DNA of 64,000 nt, taken from Ilumatobacteraceae bacterium (GTDB taxonomy: Bacteria > Actinomycetota > Acidimicrobiia > Acidimicrobiales > Ilumatobacteraceae). The stretch covers positions 44,615-108,614 of the forward strand of contig DAIRSS010000001.1 of NCBI GenBank assembly GCA_036804285.1. The letters run 5' to 3'. The position numbers and the translations under genes are program-made. This document shows positions 1,699 through 64,000 of this stretch, one piece after another; position 1 is the first letter of the stretch; each line of letters begins with the position of its first letter. The notes under the pieces are model-generated. The model ran no database searches and was not told the origin of the DNA. It was given only the letters and a program-made list of their open reading frames with translations.

Positions 1699-3363
<1,665 letters not shown>

Positions 3364-5665: not shown

Positions 5666-6912
5666 TGCTGTGGTCCTTTCGCGGTGATGTCGGATTGATC
5701 AAAGACGTGGCCCATGCGGTCCTGCTTGGTCTTCAGATAAGCGGCGTTCTCTGGCGTCGGCTCGATCGAAAGCGGCACGCGCTCCACGATCGACAGTCCA
5801 TAGCCGGCGATCCCGCCGTACTTCGCCGGATTGTTCGTCATCAGTCGCAGGTCTTTCGCGCCGAGGTCGGCGAGGATCTGTGCGCCGATGCCGTACTCGC
5901 GGCTGTCGACGGGGAGACCGAGCTTGGTGTTGGCATCGACCGTGTCGTAACCCTCGTCCTGCAACGAGTACGCGCGGATCTTGTGCGCAATGCCGATGCC
6001 ACGACCCTCGTGACCGCGCAGGTAGACGACGACGCCCCGACCCTCTGCGTCGATCTGGCGCATCGCCGAGGCGAGTTGTGGTCCACAGTCGCAACGACGG
6101 CTACCGAAGACGTCGCCCGTCAGACATTCGCTGTGCACGCGCGTCAGCACGGGACGACCGTCTGCGACGTTGCCCTTGACGAAGGCGAGGTGTTCGATGC
6201 CGTCGATCGTGCTGCGATAGGCGACGCACGTGAAACCACCCCATTCGGTCGGCACGTTCGCTTCGCCCATGCGCTCGACGAGCCGTTCGTGTGTGCGGCG
6301 ATAGTCGATGAGATCTGCGATCGAGGAGAGGAGCAGGTTGTGTTGCTTGGCGAACACGCGCAGTTCGGGCAGTCGCGCCATCGTTCCATCGTCGTTTTGG
6401 ATCTCGCAGATGATTCCCGCTGGCTCGCATCCGGCCAGTCGCGCAAGGTCGACGGCAGCCTCGGTGTGGCCCGCGCGCTTGAGCACGCCACCTTCGCGGG
6501 CGCGCAGCGGAAAGATGTGTCCGGGGCGGGCGAATGCCGAGTGCGTCACGGTCGGGTCGGCGAGTGCGCGCAACGTGGCGGCACGGTCGGACGCCGAGAT
6601 GCCGGTCGTCGTTCCCTCGAGGAGGTCGACCGACACGGTGAATGCGGTGCGGTGGCTCTCGGTGTTGTGGTCGACCATGAGCGGCAGGCGCAGGTCGTCG
6701 CAGCGTTCACCGGTGAGTGGGGCGACGACGACGCCGGAGGTGTGGCGCACGATGAAGGCGATCTTCTCCGGCGTGGCGTACTGGGCCGCCATGATCAGGT
6801 CGCCCTCGTTCTCGCGGTCCTCGTCGTCGACCATGACCACCATCTCGCCGCGGCCGATCGCCGCAACGACGTCTTCGATCGGTGCCATTTCGCTGTCGCT
6901 TCGTCGTGTCAT
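5662..6912 (-). CDS. ribBA: bifunctional 3,4-dihydroxy-2-butanone-4-phosphate synthase / GTP cyclohydrolase II
   Basis: 416 aa. [16 protein letters not shown] marks the DHBP synthase half and [19 protein letters not shown] marks the GCH II half. There is a 4-nt overlap with ribH. Confidence 0.95.
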
Positions 6913-7907
6913 TGCATCGCCTTTGTTCGTCGGGGGTTGAAGATGATCTCGAGGTCGTCGCCATAGGGCGTGACACTCACGATGTCGCCACGGTGCACGT
7001 CTGCAGCAGTTGCATCGCCAGAGCCAGCGAGCAGCCCGGGGGAGTCGCTGCCACCGGCGACGACTCCAGCAAGGTGCACGATGAACTCATCGACGAGATC
7101 TGCGCGTTCGAAGCTCGTGACGACGCGTGGTCCGCCCTCGACGAGGAGTTGGAGGACGCCTTCGCTGCCGAGATGGTCCAGCAGATCGGTGAGTTCGCCC
7201 GACCACTCGAGGCATGGATGGGCTTTGGCGGTTGCGGGGGCCGAGCCGAGGACGACTCGACGCGGGGAAGGTCCTTCGACCAGGCGTGTCGTCAATTCGG
7301 GATCGTCTGCGCGCACCGTGCCTGCACCGACGAGGATCGCGTCGCTCTCGGCCCGCAATTCGTGCACGCGTGTGCGTGCGGGAACTCCCGTGAGCCAGCG
7401 TTCGCTCGGCGATGGTGAGGTGACGCGACCATCGATCGTCATCGCCATCTTCGCGACGACGTACGGGCGACCGGTTCGACGATGGTGGACGTAGGCCCGA
7501 AGTTGATGCGCAACGTCAGACTCACAAACGCCGACGGTGACGTCAACTCCTGCAGCGCGGAGGCGAGCGATGCCGGTTCCACGAACCTTGTCGTCAGGAT
7601 CTTCGATGCCAACGACGACGCGAGCGATTCGGGCTTCGATGATTGCCTCGGTGCATGGACCGGTGCGGCCCGTGTGATTGCACGGCTCGAGTGTGCAATA
7701 CAGCGTTGCTCCCTGTGCTTTTGCACCAGCGAGACGAAGTGCAGCGACTTCTGCATGTGGTCCACCGGGTTCCGCAGTTGCACCTTCGAAGACTTCTCCG
7801 CTCGCCGTGACGACGAGTGCACCGACCCACGGATTCGGTCGCGAACGCAAACGAGCGTGGCGGGCGACATCGAGTGCCCTGCGCATGTAGTGCTCGTCGT
7901 GTTCCAT
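6909..7907 (-). CDS. ribD: riboflavin biosynthesis deaminase/reductase RibD
   Basis: HAEVAAL and [15 protein letters not shown] zinc deaminase motifs plus a C-terminal reductase domain. I chose the ATG at 7907 ([12 protein letters not shown]) with AGAGGAA upstream. The longer track ORF to 7976 would run into the riboswitch leader. Confidence 0.9.
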
Positions 7908-8018
7908 GGTGTGTTCCTCTGCCGTGCATCGTGCGTGCAGGGGCGAGGGAACGACGAGGGTATGCGCAACGAACACGACGCCCGAGAGGGGTCGCCACTA
8001 CGCGCACAACCAACGCCG

Positions 8019-8138
8019 ACTTGCTCCCATCCGGACTCTGACCGTCGGCCTTGGAATTTCACCAAGTCAGCCCACCGCCGAAGCGATGGGGTCGCGGGCT
8101 TTCACCGCCGGTAGGGGATTTCACCCAACCCTGCAAGT
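8019..8138 (-). promoter_or_regulatory. FMN riboswitch (RFN element) leader of the rib operon
   Basis: The minus-strand RNA reads CUUGCAGGGUUGGGUGAAAUCCCCUACCGGCGGUGAAAGCCCGCGACCCC...GGUGGGCUGACUUGGUGAAAUUCCAAGGCCGACGGUCAGAGUCCGGAUGGGAGCAAG. This matches the RFN conserved cores, and P1 closes as CUUGC/GCAAG. Confidence 0.9.
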
Positions 8139-8202
8139 ACGACTCAATTGCTATGTCGACTACAGGCTACGGGGCGTTCGTCGGACGGACAATGTCGAGC
8201 GG

Positions 8203-29167: not shown

Positions 29168-30544
29168 ATGTCAGTATTCGCAGACACGGCGGATGCCGTG
29201 ACGATTCTCGGGCAACAAATCAGCTTGCTCTGGATCGTCATCGGTGCCGCGCTCGTGGTGTTCATGCAGGCGGGGTTCGCCCTCGTCGAGACCGGGTTCT
29301 GCCGCGCCAAGCACGCGGCCCACGTGGTGGCGACGAACTTCGCAATCTTCGGTCTCGGCTTCGTCGGGTTCTACTTCGTCGGATTCGCGCTCGCCTTCGG
29401 CGGGTTCTCGTACTCGGCGTTCGGGATGGACACGCCGGTCGGAGACGCCTTGATCGGCAGCGGTGATTGGGTGTTCGCGTGGAAGGGCGGCTGGGCACTC
29501 GCGGGTGACGCGATGACGCCGGCCGTGCTCGGATTCTTCCTCTACATGGTCGCGTTCATGGACACCGTCGCGACGATCCCGACCGGTTCGATGGCCGAGC
29601 GTTGGAGATGGGGGAGCTTCGTCGGCTGGGGCTTCTTCTGTGGCGCGATCTACTACCCAGTGATGGCTGCGTGGACGTGGGGTGGCGGCTGGCTCGCAAA
29701 GACCTGGAGCACGATGTCACTCGGCGCGGGTTACGTCGACTTCGCGGGATCGGGAGTCGTGCACATGGTTGGTGGCGTGGCCGCGCTCACCGGTGCACTC
29801 GCGATCGGTCCGCGCCTCGGCAAGTTCAACGCAGATGGTTCGCCGAACACGATTGCCGGACACCACATTCCAATGGCGATGCTCGGCACGTTCATCTTGT
29901 TGTTCGGATGGTTCGGCTTCAACGCAGCGAGCACGTTCGCCGCAACCGACGTGCAGTTTGCAACGGCTGCGACGAATACGGCAATCGCCGGAGCGTTCGG
30001 TGCAGTCGCGGCGATGACGTACATCACGCGCAAGACCGGCAAGCCGGATCCGGGCATGATGGCCAACGGCATGTTGGCGGGCCTCGTGGCGGTGACGGCG
30101 CCCTGTGCGTTCATCTCGCCGTGGGCGGCTGCAGTCATCGGAGTCGTTGCTGCGATCATCGTGATCGAATCGGTCTACTTCTTCGAGCGCCGCGGCATCG
30201 ACGATCCCGTCGGGGCGATTTCCGTGCACGGCGTCGGTGGTCTGCTCGGCGTGCTGTCCGTCGGAATCTTTGCCAACGGTTCATACGGTGCGGGCTGGAA
30301 CGGCTCGAGCGTCGAGGGCGTGAAGGGATTGTTGTACGGCGATGCGAGTCAGCTCGGTGCACAGGCACTCGGCGCGGTGACGATCCTCGTCGTCAACGGC
30401 GCGCTGTCAGGAGCGTTCTTTGCGATCCAGAAGAAGGTCCTGAAGAAAGGCCTTCGCTCATCGGAGCAAGACGAACTCGACGGACTCGACATCGCCGAGA
30501 TGGGCGTGCTCGCGTACCCCGAGTTCCAGGGTTCACACCGCTAG
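29168..30544 (+). CDS. amt: ammonium transporter
   Basis: 458 aa with 11-12 TM segments. DFAGSGVVHMVGG and GVHGVGG are Amt signature blocks. AAGGAGGA lies 4 nt upstream of the ATG. Confidence 0.95.
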   Translation: MSVFADTADAVTILGQQISLLWIVIGAALVVFMQAGFALVETGFCRAKHAAHVVATNFAIFGLGFVGFYFVGFALAFGGFSYSAFGMDTPVGDALIGSGDWVFAWKGGWALAGDAMTPAVLGFFLYMVAFMDTVATIPTGSMAERWRWGSFVGWGFFCGAIYYPVMAAWTWGGGWLAKTWSTMSLGAGYVDFAGSGVVHMVGGVAALTGALAIGPRLGKFNADGSPNTIAGHHIPMAMLGTFILLFGWFGFNAASTFAATDVQFATAATNTAIAGAFGAVAAMTYITRKTGKPDPGMMANGMLAGLVAVTAPCAFISPWAAAVIGVVAAIIVIESVYFFERRGIDDPVGAISVHGVGGLLGVLSVGIFANGSYGAGWNGSSVEGVKGLLYGDASQLGAQALGAVTILVVNGALSGAFFAIQKKVLKKGLRSSEQDELDGLDIAEMGVLAYPEFQGSHR

Positions 30545-38319: not shown

Positions 38320-39171
38320 TCAGACGAAGCGGTGGCGCATGGTGCCGACGCCTTCGAGCGTCGTTTCCACCACGTCGCCGGACTTCAGGTACACCGGCGG
38401 CTTGAACCCGTGTCCGACGCCAGCGGGAGATCCGGTGTAGATGATGTCGCCGGGATACAACTCACAAATCGACGAGAGGTACGACACGATCTGGTCGATC
38501 GAAAAGATCATGTCGGTGATCACGGTGTCCTGACGCTGCTCGCCGTTCACCGTGCAACCGATTCGCAGCGCGTTGCGCTCTTCGACGCCAGCCATGTCGG
38601 CGACCCACGGACCGATCGGTGAGAATCCGGTGCGACTCTTGCCCATGCTGAACTGCGGAGGAGTTCCCGCGTATTGCAGTTTGCGATCGGAGACGTCCTG
38701 GCCGGCGCACAGACCCGCGACGTGATCCCATGCAGCCGACTGACTGATGTCGCGTCCACCCGAGCCGATGACGATGACGACTTCGGATTCGTAGTCGACG
38801 GTGTCGCCGACGATCTGGATCTCTGCGAACGGTGCATTCAGTGAGCTCTGGAACTTCGCGAAGATGAGTGGCTGCGAGGGGATCGGACTGCCCATCTCCT
38901 CGGCGTGACGCTTGTAGTTGAGTCCGACTGCGAACATCTGGCGCGGTCGCGGCACCGGGCAATCGAGTCGCTCGAGGGGAATGCTCGTGGTTGCAACAGA
39001 CGTCTTCGACGCGAGAGCGCGAAGATCATCCCAGCGGGCGAAGCACGCCATCGGATCGGACGGCAACGAGTCGTTGCTCGCGCGCGCGACGTCGATCACG
39101 TCACAGTGCGTGGCCGTGGCGCCGACGACGATGTGGGCGCGCGAATCTACCGAGGCGAGACGAAGCTGCAT
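38320..39171 (-). CDS. fumarylacetoacetate hydrolase (FAH) family protein
   Basis: FAVGLNYKRHAEEMG, DYESEVVIVIG and the GTPAGVG-like GSPAGVGHG. Confidence 0.85.
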   Translation of the reverse strand: MQLRLASVDSRAHIVVGATATHCDVIDVARASNDSLPSDPMACFARWDDLRALASKTSVATTSIPLERLDCPVPRPRQMFAVGLNYKRHAEEMGSPIPSQPLIFAKFQSSLNAPFAEIQIVGDTVDYESEVVIVIGSGGRDISQSAAWDHVAGLCAGQDVSDRKLQYAGTPPQFSMGKSRTGFSPIGPWVADMAGVEERNALRIGCTVNGEQRQDTVITDMIFSIDQIVSYLSSICELYPGDIIYTGSPAGVGHGFKPPVYLKSGDVVETTLEGVGTMRHRFV

Positions 39172-39182
39172 CGTGTCGGGTC

Positions 39183-39785
39183 CTACAGGCGACCGCGAGC
39201 CGCGCGGCGTTGTGCCTCCGCGGCCTGACGTGCGAGGCGATCCTTTTCCTTGCGCTCCGCGCGCAGGCGACGCTTCTCTGCTTGGGCGGCTTCGTCCTTC
39301 GTCGCGGCAGTCGCAGCAACGGCGGCCTTCGCGGTCGAGGCGGGGATGGCGAAGCGTTCGTCACTTGCGACGAGCTTGCGGAATCCGCCGAGCGACACGC
39401 TGTATTGGACGGCCATCAAACGCACGGCATCGAGGGTGAACTCCTCGGCGAGAGGGGTGATGATCATCTGCAGATCTTCGAGGCTCGGGTCATCGGAGCG
39501 GTCGCCGAGCATCTCGATCGCCTTCTCGGTTGCACCTTCGGCGAGCAGGATGCCGACGTCGAGGTGAGCCTTGCGTGATGCCAGTCCGGCGCGAACCTTG
39601 GAGGCCAGCGTTGCCGCATCGTCGAAGGAGCCGGCCGGGAGCGCGAGCACCTTGGCGAGTGGGTCACGCAACTTCTCGCTGACGGCCATCGTCAGGGTGG
39701 CGAGCGACTGGTCGCTCAGCGAGTCGAGCACGGCGGCATAGCGACGTTCAATAAGAATGGTGTCTCGGGAGGTGCTGACGGCCAT
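39183..39785 (-). CDS. hypothetical protein with an Ala/Lys/Arg-rich C-terminal tail
   Basis: 200 aa. A globular N-terminal part is followed by KDEAAQAEKRRLRAERKEKDRLARQAAEAQRRAARGRL. No family recognised. Confidence 0.5.
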   Translation of the reverse strand: MAVSTSRDTILIERRYAAVLDSLSDQSLATLTMAVSEKLRDPLAKVLALPAGSFDDAATLASKVRAGLASRKAHLDVGILLAEGATEKAIEMLGDRSDDPSLEDLQMIITPLAEEFTLDAVRLMAVQYSVSLGGFRKLVASDERFAIPASTAKAAVAATAATKDEAAQAEKRRLRAERKEKDRLARQAAEAQRRAARGRL

Positions 39786-39866
39786 GGTGATCCTTCGTGT
39801 GGCGACGCCTGATTGCGCGGAGGCAATGCTAACGGGCGAGTTCGCTCAGGGCGCAGTGGAATCGCG

Positions 39867-40376
39867 ATGAAGTCGGCGACCCCGGCCATGGTTGCCCTCG
39901 ATGCGGCATCCATTCGTTACGTCGCACACGCCTTCGACCACGACGTCGCCATCTCGAGCGACGTGGGTTACGGCAAGGCCGCCGCGGCCGCGCTCGGCGT
40001 CTCAGAGGAGCGGGTGTTCAAGACGTTGCTCGCGCGAGCAGATCGCGACTTCGTCGTGGCGATCGTGCCGGTCAATACGACCGTGTCGCTGAAGGCGCTG
40101 GCGAGCGCGCTCGGGGTGAAGCGTTGTGAGATGGCGCGACCCGAAGATGCACAGCGTGTGACGGGATACGTCGTCGGTGGTATCAGCCCGTTCGGCCAGA
40201 AGAAGTTGCTCGCCACCGTGATCGATGAATCGTGCATTGCCTTCGACACGATCTACGTCTCGGGAGGTCGGCGAGGACTCGACCTCGAAGTGGCACCGAA
40301 TGATCTCGTCACGGTGTTGCGAGCGCGCAGTGCTGCGATCGCACAATCCGAGAATCGATCAGTCAAGGAGGGGTAA
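39867..40376 (+). CDS. ybaK: Cys-tRNA(Pro)/Cys-tRNA(Cys) deacylase YbaK
   Basis: From MKSATPAMVALDAA onward: FKTLL, VTGYVVGGISPFGQKK and IYVSGGRRGL, the YbaK/EbsC blocks. Confidence 0.85.
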   Translation: MKSATPAMVALDAASIRYVAHAFDHDVAISSDVGYGKAAAAALGVSEERVFKTLLARADRDFVVAIVPVNTTVSLKALASALGVKRCEMARPEDAQRVTGYVVGGISPFGQKKLLATVIDESCIAFDTIYVSGGRRGLDLEVAPNDLVTVLRARSAAIAQSENRSVKEG

Positions 40377-40385
40377 GGTCGCAGT

Positions 40386-41144
40386 ATGACGACAACCATT
40401 TCGAGTGAGCGACTGTCCAACCTGCGCAAGTGGAACATCGGTCTCACCGTGTTGCACATTGCCCAGGCCATTGCGATCGCGCTCATGGCGGGCAGTTTTG
40501 CCATCACCATCACCTCGACGTTCCCCGAAGGTCCTCCGGGAACGCGCATCGACACACCTGGTTCGCTCTTCGATCTCCCGATCGGTCCTGCGGTCGCGGT
40601 GTTCCTCGCGCTCGCCGCACTCGACCACCTCATCACTGCGACGGTGATGCGGGGTACCTACGAGCGCGATCTCGCTCGCGGCATCAATCGATTCCGTTGG
40701 GTCGAGTATTCGATCAGCGCGACGCTGATGTTGATCCTCATCTCGTCCTACTCGGGCATCACCGACGTCGCTGCACTGCTGTGCTTGATCGGTGCGAACG
40801 TCGGCATGATCCTCTTCGGTTGGCTGCAGGAGACCATGAACCCGCCGGACCGCACGACGACAACCATGAAGCCGTTCTGGTTCGGCACGCTCGCGGGAGC
40901 GTTGCCGTGGGTGGCGATCTGGGTCAACGTGATCGGCGCCGAGACGGTTCCGGGTTTCGTGTTCGGCATCGTGGTCGCCGAGCAGATCTTCTTCTTCAGT
41001 TTCGGTCTGAACCAGTGGTTGCAGTACCGCAAGGTGGGCAAGTGGGCCGACTATCTCTACGGAGAGAAGGTGTACCTCGTGCTGAGCTTGGCGGCGAAGT
41101 CGTTCCTCGCGTGGCAGATCTACGGCGGATCACTGGCCAACTAG
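40386..41144 (+). CDS. heliorhodopsin (retinal-binding 7-TM protein, inverted topology)
   Basis: 252 aa with 7 TM segments. In order: His24, GPPGT loop, His81, FRWVEYS (Glu107), ILFGWLQE, FWFG..PW, VPGFVFG, LQY..GKW..YL.GE and SLAAKSFLAWQI with Lys238 (AAG at 41097-41099). This pattern matches the recalled prototype 48C12. Confidence 0.9.
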   Translation: MTTTISSERLSNLRKWNIGLTVLHIAQAIAIALMAGSFAITITSTFPEGPPGTRIDTPGSLFDLPIGPAVAVFLALAALDHLITATVMRGTYERDLARGINRFRWVEYSISATLMLILISSYSGITDVAALLCLIGANVGMILFGWLQETMNPPDRTTTTMKPFWFGTLAGALPWVAIWVNVIGAETVPGFVFGIVVAEQIFFFSFGLNQWLQYRKVGKWADYLYGEKVYLVLSLAAKSFLAWQIYGGSLAN

Positions 41145-41149
41145 GCGAT

Positions 41150-41998
41150 TCAACGCGTCACGTTCTTGACGAGACCCTGGATCTCGCGCACGACCATGCG
41201 GTGATTCGCATCCAGGGTGACGGTACCCAGTGATCCACGGGCACCGAGGCTCGACACCCACGTCACCTCCCACTCGATCGACACCGTCGCGTCGAACACG
41301 CCGTCGTCCTGCGTGGAGGACGAATGGAGATACGTATACATACACGGCGAGGGGAGCGTGTCGCCGAACGCCTCGACCCAGGGAATGCCCGGCCCACGAC
41401 ACGTCACTTCGCCCGTTCCGAGCGCACCATCGCCCGGATCGAAGATCAGTTCCTTGGGTGTGGCCGTCGTCGTCACGCTCACCGGACCCGCGGGCGTCGG
41501 CACCCACGCCGTCGCGCTGATCGGGATCCACATCAAGGGGTTGACCCAGATCCAGGTGCCGAGCTTGACGATGCCGCGATGTGCAGGTGGCGCGAAGTTG
41601 CCCCACGGAGCGGGGATGTTCTCATAGACGACCGACGATGCCTGTTGGGCGAGCGTGGACGTCGAGACCTCGGGAATCCAGTGATACGTGGTCGCAGGGT
41701 CGCGATCGAGGCACGTGTAGTCGTACAAGCGATACGTGGTGGTGCCGACGACTTTGGTGACGTCATCTGCGTCGCTGTGCGTGTCGCGCGGGAGCGCCAC
41801 CGACCACTCACACTCATCGTTCGATCCATCCGACCCGGGAGGTGAGCCCCAACGAATTCCCGCCATCACGCGCGCACCATCGACGCCCGCCGACACATCG
41901 ATCGATGACGAGTTCTGCGCATCCGATGCGCGAACGGGCGAAGGGACGACGAGCCCCGTCGCGATGATGATCACACTCAGTCCACGTCGAATCCGCAC
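41150..41998 (-). CDS. hypothetical secreted protein (Trp- and Cys-containing)
   Basis: A GTG at 41998 is preceded by GGAGGAGG at 4-nt spacing. Signal peptide (M)RIRRGLSVIIIATGLVVPSPVRASD. The upstream part of the 345-aa track ORF is Arg-rich and overlaps the preceding gene. Confidence 0.55.
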   Translation of the reverse strand: MRIRRGLSVIIIATGLVVPSPVRASDAQNSSSIDVSAGVDGARVMAGIRWGSPPGSDGSNDECEWSVALPRDTHSDADDVTKVVGTTTYRLYDYTCLDRDPATTYHWIPEVSTSTLAQQASSVVYENIPAPWGNFAPPAHRGIVKLGTWIWVNPLMWIPISATAWVPTPAGPVSVTTTATPKELIFDPGDGALGTGEVTCRGPGIPWVEAFGDTLPSPCMYTYLHSSSTQDDGVFDATVSIEWEVTWVSSLGARGSLGTVTLDANHRMVVREIQGLVKNVTR

Positions 41999-42606
41999 AG
42001 GTCCTCCTCCATGTTCATCTCCGTGCCACGTGCCGACACCCACTTCCAACGGCCCGACTCGAGAGCGATCTCCCAGCGTGTGCGTGCGGAGACCACCGCG
42101 TCGTCGACGATGATCGGACTCGTCGTGAACTCGGCGGCGTCGTTCGAGTGACCAAGATCGAACAACACCACCGAGTCCAATGAGCATGTGTGCACGACGG
42201 CACGCCCGACGTCCGTCAGGTCGACGGATTCGATGCGATAGCGGAACTCGCCGACTCCGGGGAGGGTGCGAAATCCGGCCTGGCTGCGTTCAGCCATCAA
42301 GTTGGTGAGGAAACTGCGGTATTCGCTGCCGCTTGCCGTGATCTGGGCGACGGCACACCGATCAGGACGTTCACCGCAGCGTGTTCGTTCGGCGATCGCT
42401 CTCGCAAAATCCCGCGTGATCGCTTCGCGCGAGTTTGCATCGCCGACTTCATCGGGTGTCGTCGTCGATGGAGGAGACGGCTCGTCGAGCACGCTGATTG
42501 GGTCGATCTCGGCTGACACCGGCCGCCACGTGTTCGCCTCTGGATCGCGCGCACAACCGAGGAGTCCGACGAGGACGATGAGGAGTAGTGGTGATGATCG
42601 GGACAA
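41977..42606 (-). CDS. hypothetical lipoprotein (possibly an NTF2-like fold)
   Basis: Lipobox MSRSSPLLLIVLVGLLGCA. The C-terminal half alternates beta-like segments ending in WEIALESGRWKWV. Confidence 0.55.
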   Translation of the reverse strand: MSRSSPLLLIVLVGLLGCARDPEANTWRPVSAEIDPISVLDEPSPPSTTTPDEVGDANSREAITRDFARAIAERTRCGERPDRCAVAQITASGSEYRSFLTNLMAERSQAGFRTLPGVGEFRYRIESVDLTDVGRAVVHTCSLDSVVLFDLGHSNDAAEFTTSPIIVDDAVVSARTRWEIALESGRWKWVSARGTEMNMEEDLCGFDVD

Positions 42607-42717
42607 CTCTGCCTCCGCCGATAGCAGTGAAGTGACGATGGGGATGTGTGTGCAGAGTGTGGCACGAGGTACTGATTCCGTGCCCGGTCGAGGTGCAAGT
42701 TACGGACGGTAGAGTTG

Positions 42718-44841
42718 ATGAACCCCAAAATGAGCCATCCGCACCCCGACCACGAGGCCGAACAGGCCCACATCGACCGAGCGTACGACTGCCTCGAACG
42801 CTCCAAGACCGACGCCTGGCGCATCCGCGACCTGAATGAGGCGAGCACCGGCGGCACCTTCCAGGCCCGCTACGAGCGCAACGCCTTCGACGAGCAGCTG
42901 CTCGCTCGCCTCACCCAGCTGGACCTCGGGGATGCCGCCCTCGTCTTCGGGCGGATCGACCGGACCGCAGAGGGGGACTCGGGGCTCGAGAGTTTCCACA
43001 TCGGTCGTCTCGCGGTCGCGGACCTCGATCGAGAGCCGGTCGTCGTCGACTGGCGCGCGCCAGTGGCCGAGCCGTTCTATCGAGCGACGGGTCGCGAGCC
43101 GATGGGACTCGTTCGTCGTCGGCACTTCGCCGTCGAGGGCCGCACGTTGCTCGGGATCGAAGACGAATTGTTCGGCGAAGGACACCTCGGTGTCGGTCAC
43201 GATGAAGGTCTGACGAGCGTCGTCGGTCGCGAGGGCATCCGCGGCTACAGCACGCTGCTCACCGCACTCAGTCGTGGGCGCACCGGTCAACTCGGTGACA
43301 TCGTCGCGACGATCCAGTCGGAACAGGACGAGATCATTCGCGCGCCGCATGCGGGCGTGCTCGTCGTGCAGGGTGGCCCCGGAACCGGCAAGACGGTCGT
43401 CGCGCTGCACCGCGCCGCGTATCTGTTGTACACGCATCGTTTCCCACTCGAAGACCAAGGCGTGCTCGTGATCGGACCGAACCGTGTGTTCCTCCGCTAC
43501 ATCGAGCGCGTGTTGCCGTCGCTCGGTGAAGCAGGAGTCGAGCAAAAGGTTCTCGCCGATCTCGTTCCCGGTCACCGCATCGGCCTGCGTGAGTCGAACG
43601 AGACCCGTCGTGTGAAGGGTGACGTGCGCATGTCGCGTGTCGTCGCGAATGCGATCCGCGATCGCGAGCGTCCGTTGCGCGAAGACCTCGTCATTCCCTA
43701 TGGCGCGAGCAACCTGCGTCTCCGCGCCAAGGAGAGTGCTCGCATCGTCAAGGAGGCGCGTCGTCGCTATCGGCGACACAACGCCGCGTGTCGCTTCGTC
43801 GAGACCGAAGTGGTTGCTGCGATGGCTGCAACGGGCCGCAATCCCGACGTGGACCTCGAGGCGCTGCGTGAGGGCTTGCGAGACATCGTCGAGTTCCGCG
43901 CGGCGATCACGCGCATGTGGCCGATCCTCACACCCGCGGAGTTGTTGCACGATCTCTTCGGCTCATCCGCGCTCCTGCGGCTCGCGTGTGAAGACGTGCT
44001 CACCACCGACGAGCGCGACGCGTTGCATCGACCACGCAGTTCATCGCTCGGAGAAGTCGTGTGGTCGGAGAGCGACGTCGCGCTCCTGGATGAGGCGCTC
44101 GCCGGACTCGGCCCGCGGCCGCGCAAGAGCGGTCGGATCAACGAGGCCGACGAAGTTCGCTCGTATGGCCACATCGTGATCGACGAGGTGCAGGACTTGA
44201 CGCCGATGCAGTTGCGTATGGTGTCGCGTCGTTCGCTCAACGGATCGATGACGGTGGTCGGTGATCTCGCCCAGGCGACGGGGCCGTTCGCGCCGGACGA
44301 CTGGAGCGACGTCCTTCGCCATCTGCCGGACAAGCGCCAGCCGCAGGTGGTGGGTCTGAGTGTGGGCTATCGCATCCCGTCACAGATCATGGAACTCGCC
44401 GACAAGGTGATGAAGGAGGCAGCGCCGTCGTTGCGCGCGCCGACGTCTGTTCGCGACGGTGAACATCCGCCGCACATCATTCGTTCGACGTCGTTGCTCG
44501 ACGACGTTGCCACTGCAGCTGCACAGATGGTCGCCGACGTCGCCACCGGCAACGTCGCCGTCGTGTGCCCGGATCAGATGGCCGATGCGGTCTCGGCCTC
44601 GCTGACGAAAGCCGGTCTCTCGCATGGACGAGCAGGCGCGACCGCGCTCGATACCTCGCTCACCGTCGTTCCCGTGAGCGTCGTCAAGGGTCTCGAGCTC
44701 GACGGTGTCATCGTCGTCGAACCGGCAGAGATCGTGGCTGCCAATCAGCACGGTCTGCGACTGCTGTACGTGGCGCTCACGCGTTCGACGCAGCGGCTGA
44801 CGGTCGTGCACGCGGCCGATCTGCCGGCATCTATGCGCTGA
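42718..44841 (+). CDS. helD: HelD-type (helicase IV-like) RNA-polymerase-associated SF1 ATPase
   Basis: N-terminal coiled-coil region, GRIDR..FHIGR, VVQGGPGTGKTVVALHRAAYLLY, IDEVQDLTP and C-terminal VALTRSTQRL. Confidence 0.85.
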   Translation: MNPKMSHPHPDHEAEQAHIDRAYDCLERSKTDAWRIRDLNEASTGGTFQARYERNAFDEQLLARLTQLDLGDAALVFGRIDRTAEGDSGLESFHIGRLAVADLDREPVVVDWRAPVAEPFYRATGREPMGLVRRRHFAVEGRTLLGIEDELFGEGHLGVGHDEGLTSVVGREGIRGYSTLLTALSRGRTGQLGDIVATIQSEQDEIIRAPHAGVLVVQGGPGTGKTVVALHRAAYLLYTHRFPLEDQGVLVIGPNRVFLRYIERVLPSLGEAGVEQKVLADLVPGHRIGLRESNETRRVKGDVRMSRVVANAIRDRERPLREDLVIPYGASNLRLRAKESARIVKEARRRYRRHNAACRFVETEVVAAMAATGRNPDVDLEALREGLRDIVEFRAAITRMWPILTPAELLHDLFGSSALLRLACEDVLTTDERDALHRPRSSSLGEVVWSESDVALLDEALAGLGPRPRKSGRINEADEVRSYGHIVIDEVQDLTPMQLRMVSRRSLNGSMTVVGDLAQATGPFAPDDWSDVLRHLPDKRQPQVVGLSVGYRIPSQIMELADKVMKEAAPSLRAPTSVRDGEHPPHIIRSTSLLDDVATAAAQMVADVATGNVAVVCPDQMADAVSASLTKAGLSHGRAGATALDTSLTVVPVSVVKGLELDGVIVVEPAEIVAANQHGLRLLYVALTRSTQRLTVVHAADLPASMR

Positions 44842-45240
44842 CTAGGAAGTCGAGTCGACGAGCAGCTGCATGAACCGCGCGGCCTTGTCGGCCTCTGCGG
44901 GTCTGTTGCGCACCACGCTCGTGCGCGCGAGTTCGACGATGCGGAGGAGGTCCGCGACGAACTGTTCACCTTCGCTTGCAGCCTGCGGTTCGAGTGCGAG
45001 CCACACGGCCTCGATGTCGGCGAGGACCGACTTCGCTTTCGGTTTGTCCTGAGCGAACGTGGCATCGGACAGTGCGTCGAGATGGGACTGGAGGTTCGCC
45101 AACAGTTCCGTCGTCGACCCGCTCGGAATCGTCGTCGTCGACGGTGTAACGGTGGTCGTCGGGGAAGTGTTGACGATCGTGGTTGCGCAACTCGTCAGCG
45201 CGACGAAGCACGCGAGGATGGAAACGATGCGACGCATCAC
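44842..45240 (-). CDS. hypothetical lipoprotein
   Basis: Lipobox MMRRIVSILACFVALTSCA, then a Thr-rich linker and a helical domain. There is a 4-nt overlap with the ideR-like gene upstream. Confidence 0.5.
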   Translation of the reverse strand: MMRRIVSILACFVALTSCATTIVNTSPTTTVTPSTTTIPSGSTTELLANLQSHLDALSDATFAQDKPKAKSVLADIEAVWLALEPQAASEGEQFVADLLRIVELARTSVVRNRPAEADKAARFMQLLVDSTS

Positions 45241-50749: not shown

Positions 50750-51505
50750 ATGGTAGAGGGCACGTCCAGCGAATCTCCGTTGAGCGTCGAGGTGCGCTCG
50801 AACGTGATGATCCTCACGATGACGAGGCCCTCTCGCCGCAACGCGGTGAACCTCGAGATGCTGCACGCCTTCGCCGATGCATTCGACCAGGCACGCGCGA
50901 AGTCGATTCGGGTGATTCTGCTCACCGGTGTCGATCCTTCGTTCAGTGCGGGTGCCGACCTCGCCGGCGTGAAGGAGGACGACTTTCAAGACGCATTGCA
51001 TGGCGTGTTGAAGTCGTTCGTCGACCCGAAAGTCGTCACGGTCGCGTACGTCAACGGTCATGCACTCGGCGCGGGTGCCCAGTTGATGGCCGCTTGCGAC
51101 GTGCGAATGGCTGCGCCGACCGCAGTCGTCGGGATTCCCGCCGCCAAGCTCGGACTCGTCGTCAACCACTGGACGATCGAGCGACTCGTGCGCGAGTTCT
51201 CGTGGCCGGTTGCGCGCAACATGTTGCTGACGGCTGCAACCTATGACGCCGAAGCGTTGCATGCGATCGGATCGATCCAACGCTTGGGCACGCTCGAAGA
51301 GGCAATTGCGTGGGCAACAGAGATCGCAGAACTCGCCCCGCTGACACAGTTCGGACACAAGCTCGCACTCGAGTCGACTGCTGGTGAACCGGACGTGGAT
51401 GATCTCGTCGTGATTGCGAGAAAGCGCGCGATCGAGAGCAACGACGTGACCGAAGGTAGGGCCGCGTTTGCCGAGAAGCGAAAGCCGAAGTTCACCGGGT
51501 CATGA
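50750..51505 (+). CDS. enoyl-CoA hydratase/isomerase (crotonase) family protein
   Basis: TMTRPSRRNAVN, FSAGADL and GHALGAGAQL oxyanion-hole blocks. Confidence 0.85.
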   Translation: MVEGTSSESPLSVEVRSNVMILTMTRPSRRNAVNLEMLHAFADAFDQARAKSIRVILLTGVDPSFSAGADLAGVKEDDFQDALHGVLKSFVDPKVVTVAYVNGHALGAGAQLMAACDVRMAAPTAVVGIPAAKLGLVVNHWTIERLVREFSWPVARNMLLTAATYDAEALHAIGSIQRLGTLEEAIAWATEIAELAPLTQFGHKLALESTAGEPDVDDLVVIARKRAIESNDVTEGRAAFAEKRKPKFTGS

Positions 51506-52140
51506 GCGTCGTCGAGTTCTCCGACGTCGTCGTCACCTACGACGGCTACCCGGCACTCGCCGGCGTGTCTGCCCGTATCGAGACCGGTCAGATAGTCCTC
51601 GTGCGCGGAGAAAATGGTGCGGGTAAGTCAACGCTGTTGCGCACGATTGCCGGTCTCTTGCCCGTCGAGCGAGGGACTGCAACCGTGCTCGGAATCGACG
51701 TGGCTCACCATCGTGAGGCGGTGCGCGCACGAATCGGCATGCTCTCTCATCGAAATGGTCTGTTCATGGATCTCACCGCGCGCGACAACGTCGAGTTTTG
51801 GGCGCGTTGCGTCGGCGCGACGGATTCGGACGTCGACGACGCACTGGGTCGTATGCGCATCGGACGGGAGCTTTCCTCGACACTCGTGACGAAGTTGTCG
51901 GCGGGGCAGCGACGCAGGGTCGCCCTTGCCTCACTCGTCGTCCGTCGCGCAGAGCTGTGGTTGTTGGACGAGCCACACTCGGGACTCGACGAGCAATCCC
52001 GTGCGGATCTCGATGCGGTGCTGCTCGAGGCATCGCGAGCGGGGGCGACCATCGTGGTCGCGTCACACGACACCGATCGAGTCACCAAGTTTGCGAACTC
52101 GACGATCATGTTGGCTTCGGGACGGACGGTTGCGTCGTGA
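51502..52140 (+). CDS. ccmA: heme exporter ATP-binding protein CcmA
   Basis: GENGAGKSTLLR, LSAGQRRRVALA and LLDEP. The ATGA overlaps the crotonase stop. Confidence 0.85.
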   Translation: MSVVEFSDVVVTYDGYPALAGVSARIETGQIVLVRGENGAGKSTLLRTIAGLLPVERGTATVLGIDVAHHREAVRARIGMLSHRNGLFMDLTARDNVEFWARCVGATDSDVDDALGRMRIGRELSSTLVTKLSAGQRRRVALASLVVRRAELWLLDEPHSGLDEQSRADLDAVLLEASRAGATIVVASHDTDRVTKFANSTIMLASGRTVAS

Positions 52141-63018: not shown

Positions 63019-64000
63019 ATGCCGACCCTCGTCGAACTCGCCAACGAACACACGAACCTCGACGACGAGGCGATCGACCATCTCTCGACCCTCGTGTCCG
63101 AGTGGGGGATGCTCGCGGACTTCTCCTTTGCCGACATGCTCCTGTACCTGCAGGATCAGTCGGGGAGATGGATGACGTCTGCTCAGGTTCGCGCGGCCAC
63201 CGGTCAGACGCTGTACCAAGCCGACTACGTCAATTCGTGGGCGAGTGAGAGCGAGTGCATCGTGCTCGATCGCTGCCTCGCCGAGGGCGAGATCGTCACG
63301 GGAGAGATCTTCGTGCAAGCGATCGGCGGACCGGCGAACATGCTCGCCATTCCCGTGCGCTTCAACGGCACGATCATCGCCATCCTCACGCGCGAGTGGG
63401 TGACGGACAACGCTCGTCGCCCTGGCCAGCTCGAGAGCACGTATGCCGACATCTTCGCGCGGCTCTCCGAGATGGTTGCCGCTGGTCTCTATCCGTTCGC
63501 CAGTGGTGTCGCGGATGCGGGCGTCGCCCCACGCGTGGGTGACGGTGTCGTCGTCCTCGACGCACATACTCGAGTTCGTTACGCATCACCGAACGCGGTG
63601 TCGGCGCTCCACCGTGTGGGCGTGAGCACGAACGCGGTCGGCCAGACGCTCGCCGAACTCGGCGTTGCAGAGAGCGTTGCGCGCCATTCCTTCGAGCGCT
63701 GCGAACCCGTGATCGAGGAAGTCGAGCAGACCACCGAAGTGACGCTCCTCATCCGTTCCATTCCGCTCCTCAAGCACGCGGGGAAGTCGGTGGAGGTGAC
63801 GGGCGGGGTCTTGTTGCTTCGCGACGTCTCCGAACTTCGTCGGCGAGATCGATTGCTCCTCACCAAGGACGCCACGATCCGCGAGATCCACCACCGCGTG
63901 AAGAACAACCTGCAGACGATCTCGAGCTTGCTGCGCCTACAGGCCCGCCGACTCACCTCGGATGAGGCCAAGGAAGCAGTCAGTGAGTCCGTGCGCCGCA
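63019..64000 (+). CDS. pdtaS: PdtaS-type GAF-PAS sensor histidine kinase (3' end lies outside the window)
   Basis: It is absent from the ORF track because no stop is reached. Hand translation from the ATG at 63019 is open to the window end. It includes LSTLVSEWGMLADFSFADMLLY, GDGVVVLD..RVRYASPNAVSALHR and LLTKDATIREIHHRVKNNLQTISSLLRLQARR (HisKA_2 H-box). Confidence 0.8.
   Translation, partial: MPTLVELANEHTNLDDEAIDHLSTLVSEWGMLADFSFADMLLYLQDQSGRWMTSAQVRAATGQTLYQADYVNSWASESECIVLDRCLAEGEIVTGEIFVQAIGGPANMLAIPVRFNGTIIAILTREWVTDNARRPGQLESTYADIFARLSEMVAAGLYPFASGVADAGVAPRVGDGVVVLDAHTRVRYASPNAVSALHRVGVSTNAVGQTLAELGVAESVARHSFERCEPVIEEVEQTTEVTLLIRSIPLLKHAGKSVEVTGGVLLLRDVSELRRRDRLLLTKDATIREIHHRVKNNLQTISSLLRLQARRLTSDEAKEAVSESVRR

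Follow-up and report, generated by a model that had tools for sequence, protein, structure and literature searches.

A standard bacterial heliorhodopsin gene without a conserved local partner in an Ilumatobacteraceae genome

A 64,000-nucleotide stretch of the genome of an Ilumatobacteraceae bacterium (GenBank assembly GCA_036804285.1, contig DAIRSS010000001.1, positions 44,615 to 108,614 of the forward strand; hereafter the window, numbered from its first letter) encodes a standard bacterial heliorhodopsin in the open reading frame (ORF) at 40386-41144. Within its gene block, heliorhodopsin is a single-gene presence or absence: it lies between ybaK, which encodes a tRNA-editing enzyme, and a convergently transcribed gene, and it has no conserved local partner. 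By analogy with characterised members of the family, the protein would act as a slow-cycling light sensor that modulates a partner, a model that we regard as highly probable when identity and photochemistry are taken together. The family was reportedly described in 2018. An earlier reading of the DNA letters (the original prediction) had already proposed a heliorhodopsin at this position, and the identification is borne out by profile matches, alignment and predicted fold.

Family membership, key residues and predicted fold

The ORF protein matches the Pfam heliorhodopsin profile PF18761 from end to end (profile 1-242 of 242; 321.5 bits against a cutoff of 26.7 bits, E 3.9e-96) and also the NCBIfam equivalog NF038020, 'heliorhodopsin HeR' (profile 1-244 of 244; 266.6 bits, cutoff 100 bits), and gives no match to Pfam Bac_rhodopsin at E <= 1. 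Among solved structures, the best sequence match is to 48C12 (PDB 6SU3, 6SU4, 6UH3, 9LJJ), the prototype of the family, from a Lake Kinneret actinobacterial fosmid (E 1.6e-65; ORF residues 9-250 on 8-253). Further matches are to TaHeR of a Thermoplasmatales archaeon (PDB 6IS6, 7U55, 7CLJ; E 1.5e-52) and the eukaryotic Cv06 (9VFC; E 5.8e-38). The coding sequence and its motifs are:

40386..41144, plus strand: heliorhodopsin coding sequence, translated into 252 amino acids plus a stop
40704..40706, plus strand: GAG codon of Glu107, at the Schiff-base counterion position (aligned to Glu107 of 48C12)
41097..41099, plus strand: AAG codon of Lys238, at the retinal Schiff-base lysine position (aligned to Lys241 of 48C12)
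Residues 7-16: SERLSNLRKW
Residues 23-27: LHIAQ
Residues 49-53: GPPGT
Residues 78-83: ALDHLI
Residues 101-109: NRFRWVEYS
Residues 142-149: ILFGWLQE
Residues 163-167: PFWFG
Residues 188-195: VPGFVFGI
Residues 230-245: YLVLSLAAKSFLAWQI

The length of the ORF and all of these motifs, residues and codons lie where the original prediction had placed them. Residues 24 and 81 are His and residue 234 is Ser in the translation, and alignment to 48C12 pairs His24 with His23, His81 with His80, Glu107 with Glu107, Ser234 with Ser237 and Lys238 with Lys241, so that the helix-7 position that would carry the retinal is a lysine. Two alignments, one of 11 and one of 26 sequences, show no variation in these five residues or in the surrounding motifs. 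The hallmarks of type-1 rhodopsins are missing, as had been proposed: RYxDW, WxxYPxxW and NDQ are not found in the translation, nor is a helix-3 DTx, the sole string of that form being a DTP in a loop (residues 56-58) outside transmembrane helix 3.

The original prediction counted seven hydrophobic segments. Seven helices are indeed present in an AlphaFold2 model built from 26 sequences and in the alignment to 48C12, but a Kyte-Doolittle scan (window of 19 residues) has clear peaks for only six, as the Trp/Gly/Pro-rich transmembrane helix 5 (residues 162-184) falls under the threshold. The model places a beta-hairpin (strands 40-44 and 59-64) between helices 1 and 2. When it is compared with the PDB by Foldseek, the first ten matches are all heliorhodopsin chains (template modelling score, TM-score, 0.70-0.73; E 7e-15 to 1e-12), and type-1 rhodopsins follow only at E >= 0.08, with TM-scores of 0.42-0.55 and 10-15% identity, that is, with E-values at least 11 orders of magnitude worse. 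The strong structural matches are thus to heliorhodopsins only (TM-score about 0.72, E <= 1e-12), in line with the profile search and the pairwise alignment. The N-terminus and loops 2-3, 4-5 and 6-7 together carry 13 Lys and Arg residues, and the opposite face carries 1, a bias that strongly favours the predicted inverted topology with the N-terminus inside, as originally proposed.

Compared with 48C12, the protein is 46% identical over essentially the full length (252 amino acids versus about 253), and the two share the GPPGT loop and the FRWVEYS, MILFGWLQE, PFWFG, VPGFV and VLSLxAKSxLAWQI motifs. Their predicted and solved folds superpose with a TM-score of 0.72, H23/H80/E107/S237/K241 of the one correspond to H24/H81/E107/S234/K238 of the other, and both are of actinobacterial and freshwater origin. 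The differences are modest: the helix 5-6 loop has five residues fewer here (GAET) than in 48C12 (APGSTSDVA), the helix 4-5 loop has two more, one residue is deleted after helix 2, and the N-terminal tails differ. The host class also differs, the nearest relatives here being Acidimicrobiia/Ilumatobacteraceae, and 48C12 has been characterised, whereas the present protein is known from its sequence alone. TaHeR has the same family assignment and fold (TM-score 0.71, 38-39% identity) but is archaeal and more distant than 48C12. With the type-1 rhodopsins (bacteriorhodopsin, proteorhodopsin, actinorhodopsin, xanthorhodopsin), the protein has in common the seven-helix architecture of retinal proteins and a helix-7 lysine, but it differs from them in the absence of RYxDW, DTD/DTE/NDQ and WxxYPxxW and in its predicted opposite topology.

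The heliorhodopsin locus across genomes

The genes and sites that surround heliorhodopsin in the window are:

39183-39785, minus strand: hyp200, a hypothetical gene (ratio of nonsynonymous to synonymous substitution rates, dN/dS, 0.05-0.12)
39786..39866, no strand: intergenic region between the divergent hyp200 (minus) and ybaK (plus), presumed to hold the promoter of the ybaK-heliorhodopsin pair
39867..40376, plus strand: ybaK-type Cys-tRNA(Pro) deacylase gene, 169 amino acids (Pfam tRNA_edit, E 5.6e-27)
40365..40373, plus strand: putative Shine-Dalgarno-like AAGGAGGGG (AAGGAGG) in the 3' end of ybaK, read from the sequence
41150..42001, minus strand: convergent gene, about 283 amino acids from GTG 42001, whose stop is 5 bp from the heliorhodopsin stop
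41977-42606, minus strand: hyp209
42715-44841, plus strand: HelD/HelR-like ('UvrD-like') gene (NCBIfam, 367-425 bits, N-terminal two thirds only)
44842-45240, minus strand: hyp132

The TAA stop of ybaK lies 9 bp before the heliorhodopsin ATG on the same strand. The YbaK assignment is supported by the NCBIfam equivalog TIGR00011 YbaK_EbsC (170.8 bits, cutoff 153.25), and, although the longest ORF begins at TTG 39813, the ATG at 39867 agrees with the N-termini of orthologues. Neither a sigma-70 consensus promoter nor an intrinsic terminator was found in 39000-43000. The two genes are probably co-transcribed, because the same-strand gap is only 9 bp and no terminator-like site was found in that region. 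The Shine-Dalgarno-like AAGGAGGGG is placed 12-20 nt 5' of the heliorhodopsin ATG; in two close relatives, L001 and L002, the exact string is not kept, and the conserved element there is the TAAGGTCG stop/junction. Upstream of the pair, a stretch of ~70 nt that comprises the start of hyp200 and the first ~35 nt of the intergenic region (39790-39840 of the window) is nearly base-identical among the window, L001 and L002, unlike the coding regions of the three, which diverge at most synonymous sites. A short inverted repeat, ATTGC-N6-GCAAT, lies within this stretch, which may serve as an operator or promoter.

In the operons of AbHeR, TfHeR and OcHeR, too, a gene on the same strand lies a very short distance upstream, and in these systems the rule that the adjacent operon gene is the partner has held: AbHeR regulates glutamine synthetase, with a positive third cytoplasmic loop (K216, K217, K220) critical for the effect (PMC9529153), TfHeR regulates photolyase (PMC9769723), and OcHeR regulates the OmrDE ABC transporter (PMC11109279). 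By this rule heliorhodopsin and YbaK could form a functional pair, in which the loops of the light-activated heliorhodopsin would bind YbaK and tune the proofreading of Cys-tRNA(Pro). The same-strand arrangement with its 9-bp gap and no terminator found speaks for such a pair. So does purifying selection on both genes (dN/dS of ybaK 0.11-0.17 versus four orthologues; values for heliorhodopsin below), as does the junction itself, which is kept in nine syntenic loci, all with a heliorhodopsin at least 90% identical and with the ORF intact in each. Among the papers searched, none named heliorhodopsin together with YbaK.

Comparison across genomes argues the other way. In contigs representing one genome per species, 581 stretches with heliorhodopsin relatives were found, and the best 80 of them were compared. 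These loci come mostly from metagenome-assembled genomes (MAGs) of Ilumatobacteraceae, Acidimicrobiaceae and other Acidimicrobiia, with some from other Actinomycetota, and their heliorhodopsins are 62-95% identical to the one in the window. Only in L001 and L002 (94-95% identical) does ybaK stand beside heliorhodopsin; it was not found near the gene in the other 78, which confines the arrangement to one narrow lineage. Two further loci, L081 and L082, whose heliorhodopsins are 90% identical, keep the whole block in the order sulfatase, DinB, amidohydrolase, FAA hydrolase, hyp200, tRNA_edit, heliorhodopsin, convergent gene, HelD-like, hyp132, DtxR and Lhr. At 80% identity, heliorhodopsin already occupies an entirely different site, after Rieske oxygenase genes.

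A search from the side of ybaK yielded the complementary picture. Four metagenomic loci (L086-89, YbaK 80-99% identical) contain the full block with heliorhodopsin, and three others keep the block from DinB to HelD-like, with ybaK in place, and have no heliorhodopsin. The heliorhodopsin-less segments are:

L090: 4001-5328
L091: 698-2025
L092: 2355-3682

These three are mutually near-identical and represent one lineage, with YbaK 63% identical to that of the window and a G+C content (GC) of 0.50. There the stop codons of ybaK and the convergent gene are immediately adjacent, and a search for traces of heliorhodopsin found none even at E <= 10. Because both ybaK and the convergent gene are kept in L090-92 without heliorhodopsin, neither depends on it. 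The identical placement of ybaK in these loci likewise indicates that its position reflects ancestral synteny and that heliorhodopsin is an insertion or deletion within it. On finding this block, ybaK was downgraded as a candidate partner. In addition, ybaK is outside the ten neighbour groups described for partner-regulating heliorhodopsins (PMC11109279), none of which flanks the gene here, since the upstream neighbour is ybaK and the downstream one is convergent and unannotated. The pairing thus differs from the AbHeR, TfHeR and OcHeR partner operons in being lineage-specific and separable, and a functional pair with YbaK is distinctly unlikely.

The coming and going of a single gene might also be expected of a recently transferred or decaying accessory gene that has no function in its host, for instance because the host makes no retinal. 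The ORFs scanned in the window include no gene for retinal or carotenoid synthesis, which would fit, as does the presence/absence polymorphism inside one syntenic block; however, 64 kb is too short to judge retinal supply. The dN/dS of heliorhodopsin is 0.05-0.10 at dS of 0.5-0.7 versus four syntenic orthologues, values that point to strong purifying selection. The gene is also host-like in composition (GC 0.62; GC at third codon positions, GC3, 0.83), and the intact ORF in all nine syntenic loci and the invariance of the key residues speak against decay as well. A decaying or foreign gene was rejected on dN/dS and GC3, and loss of function in the host is extremely improbable.

The original prediction held that each new genomic context of a heliorhodopsin is informative, but neighbours turn out to be poorly conserved and context only weakly so. 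When the four ORFs on each side were clustered for the 80 loci plus the window, using a crude gene caller with a GC3 filter that left out 13 loci in which the heliorhodopsin ORF was uncalled, no neighbour family was shared by more than 6 of about 68 loci. Those contexts that do recur are confined to small, particular lineages. An NAD-binding/DUF2867 protein is encoded near heliorhodopsin in five loci; in four of these its gene is the immediate upstream neighbour on the same strand, and in L012 it is second upstream. Another context runs HemQ, AlaX-like, membrane protein, heliorhodopsin and then LysE, and a third SelO, heliorhodopsin and then amidase.

In a side observation, genes for P-II (GlnB/GlnK-like) and an ammonium transporter adjoin heliorhodopsin in L014 (7391-8954, minus strand) and L022 (3887-5467, minus strand), both identified from their N-terminal sequences only. 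In L083 a GlnD-like gene follows 5 kb downstream. The neighbouring amt and P-II genes echo the published link between heliorhodopsin and nitrogen metabolism.

The AlaX-like context bears on the YbaK pair, as it places a second, non-homologous tRNA trans-editing gene upstream of heliorhodopsin in a neighbouring clade. The AlaX-like gene (tRNA_SAD plus a tRNA-synt_2c fragment) is found there in L003, L004, L006, L014, L022 and L083-85, members of a sister clade with heliorhodopsins 74-83% identical, and is preceded by a gene of the HemQ/chlorite-dismutase family. The located copies, all on the plus strand, are:

L003: 2925-3647
L004: 2147-2869
L006: ~2650-3351
L014: 5232-5954
L022: 2717-3424
L083: 3494-4234

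In L006 the AlaX-like gene runs over the probable GTG start of heliorhodopsin and ends about 26 nt into the likely ORF. Photo-oxidative stress can impair the editing of tRNA synthetases. If aminoacyl-tRNA trans-editing and the heliorhodopsins of freshwater Acidimicrobiia were functionally linked, light, and with it photo-oxidative stress, would be coupled through heliorhodopsin to translational proofreading. Such a tie is nevertheless very unlikely. Once phylogenetic clustering is considered, the two contexts amount to only two independent events out of dozens of contexts, each a single event in evolution, and the category was picked post hoc from many possible ones. On a rough estimate that allows for this choice, they are not regarded as significant. 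Neither published survey of flanking genes names a tRNA-editing group, and the papers found to name heliorhodopsin together with aminoacyl-tRNA appear to concern giant viruses or Luna-1 ecology.

Proposed function and competing explanations

The original prediction regarded the family as having no agreed physiological role, with a slow photocycle and no ion pumping reported for the prototype. A slow photocycle and lack of pumping are described for bacterial heliorhodopsins in general (PMC11109279), but the statement about physiological role is partly out of date, given the regulation of partner proteins (PMC9529153, PMC9769723, PMC11109279) and the proton transport shown for the viral heliorhodopsin V2HeR3 (PMC9448325). 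The experimentally supported output of bacterial heliorhodopsins is the direct binding and modulation of a partner via positive cytoplasmic loops (PMC9529153, PMC9769723, PMC11109279). The third cytoplasmic loop is positive here too (R215, K216, K219, K228), comparable to K216/K217/K220 of AbHeR.

On this precedent, the sensor-regulator model can be set out in steps. The gene would most likely be read through from the upstream ybaK promoter. By homology to 48C12 and TaHeR, the protein would insert with its N-terminus in the cytoplasm and bind all-trans retinal at Lys238 as a protonated Schiff base, with Glu107 as counterion. Green light would isomerise the retinal, and the Schiff-base proton would pass to the region of Glu107, His24 and His81 with no net ion transport. 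A long-lived intermediate, the presumed signalling state, would then alter the Arg/Lys-rich cytoplasmic loops 86-104 and 213-229, which may modulate a partner protein as in other heliorhodopsins. The gene for the partner probably lies at another place in the genome and is not a neighbour, because the neighbouring genes are separable from heliorhodopsin. Retinal binding, the photocycle and a role in signalling rather than transport are thus proposed by analogy with characterised members.

Several points weigh against this model. The AlphaFold2 model on which the fold comparison is based has moderate confidence (mean predicted local distance difference test, pLDDT, 72.4; predicted template modelling score, pTM, 0.59), with a pLDDT below 50 at the tip of the hairpin loop (residues 50-55). 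Pigment formation is a prediction, the window contains none of the retinal or carotenoid genes looked for, and both the existence and the identity of a partner are argued from other heliorhodopsins. The tight junction with ybaK could mean that a partner is local after all. Lastly, a transport, enzymatic or carotenoid-antenna role is also compatible with the sequence (PMC9448325; bioRxiv 10.1101/2025.11.27.691015).

This last point amounts to an alternative in which heliorhodopsin acts directly: as a proton transporter like V2HeR3, as an enzyme or anion binder via its cytoplasmic cavity, or as a light harvester with a xanthophyll antenna. A self-sufficient protein would fit the absence of a conserved neighbour, the viral protein provides a precedent for proton transport (PMC9448325), and a fenestration and carotenoid site has been hypothesised for most heliorhodopsins (bioRxiv 10.1101/2025.11.27.691015). 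However, 48C12, the closest characterised relative (46% identity, with all pocket residues shared), is reported to be non-pumping and to have a slow photocycle, and the antenna idea comes from docking and bioinformatics, with energy transfer undemonstrated (bioRxiv 10.1101/2025.11.27.691015). Direct action is therefore considered unlikely, and a slow-cycling sensor that modulates a partner is preferred.

Surrounding window, relatives and significance

The window is ordinary chromosome of 61-65% GC, and its gene assignments agree with the earlier description of a heliorhodopsin among housekeeping genes. It encodes Dus, Maf, GroES/GroEL, riboflavin genes, GuaA, a P450, PcrA/UvrD, succinyl-CoA ligase, malate dehydrogenase and Amt, and then a sulfatase, a DinB-family protein, an amidohydrolase and an FAA-family hydrolase ahead of ybaK and heliorhodopsin. 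Past heliorhodopsin there are a HelD/HelR-like RNA-polymerase recycling ATPase, a DtxR/IdeR-type repressor, an Lhr helicase and an enoyl-CoA hydratase, and toward the end a Ccm cytochrome c maturation cluster, ApbC/Mrp-like and ArsA-like ATPases, and a PdtaS-like histidine kinase. Features located outside the heliorhodopsin block are:

8015-8142, minus strand: FMN riboswitch (Rfam RF00050, 109.6 bits), upstream of the minus-strand riboflavin genes
29168-30544: Amt gene, about 10 kb from heliorhodopsin and without an adjacent P-II gene
51502-52140: nearest ABC ATPase, belonging to the Ccm cytochrome c maturation cluster
63019-63999, plus strand: PdtaS-type GAF/HisKA_2 histidine kinase, running off the window end

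Among the ORFs scanned in the window there is no photolyase, glutamine synthetase, type-1 rhodopsin or multidrug ABC transporter, and no two-component system was found next to heliorhodopsin. The PdtaS-like kinase is the sole histidine kinase found in the window, and a link to heliorhodopsin is unlikely because it lies 22 kb away. The HelD/HelR-like gene scores below the curated NCBIfam cutoffs of 750-1100 bits. No Pfam or NCBIfam match was found for the small conserved genes hyp200, the convergent gene, hyp209 and hyp132, and hyp200 and the convergent gene have no significant match in the PDB. The longest ORF of the convergent gene extends to 42187; with a start at GTG 42001 it has a signal-peptide-like N-terminus, and in syntenic relatives the gene is 74-98% conserved and called at 282-285 amino acids. 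In the riboflavin region, the GC3-based plus-strand ORF calls at 6882-7418 and 7482-8114, which lack a Pfam match, are probably wrong, and the true genes at 6882-8114 are likely the minus-strand rib genes.

The original prediction singled out heliorhodopsin as the most unusual gene of the window. This view does not survive comparison with public sequences, in which freshwater actinobacterial genes of this kind are very common. A protein search that examined 8,000 candidates scored at least 6,509 homologues, several of them 100% identical to the ORF protein; others at 97-98% identity are 'MAG: Actinobacteria bacterium' records, and relatives at about 80% already bear the label 'heliorhodopsin HeR [Ilumatobacteraceae bacterium]'. 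The kind of gene is therefore already known, with identical protein sequences deposited, and this one is a routine member of a heavily sampled clade of freshwater Actinomycetota heliorhodopsins. Heliorhodopsins are reported as confined to monoderms (PMC8612252), a restriction that fits the affiliation of the host, as Ilumatobacteraceae are placed in Acidimicrobiales, Acidimicrobiia, Actinomycetota; the 94-95% heliorhodopsin identity and full synteny of the closest loci point to the same host group.

The gene itself matters little beyond its correct annotation, and curated models recognise it automatically. Its locus makes one modest point, a negative one. The gain or loss of heliorhodopsin as a lone gene supports the published view that the genomic contexts of heliorhodopsins are promiscuous, and the block that lacks it cautions against taking an adjacent gene as the partner.

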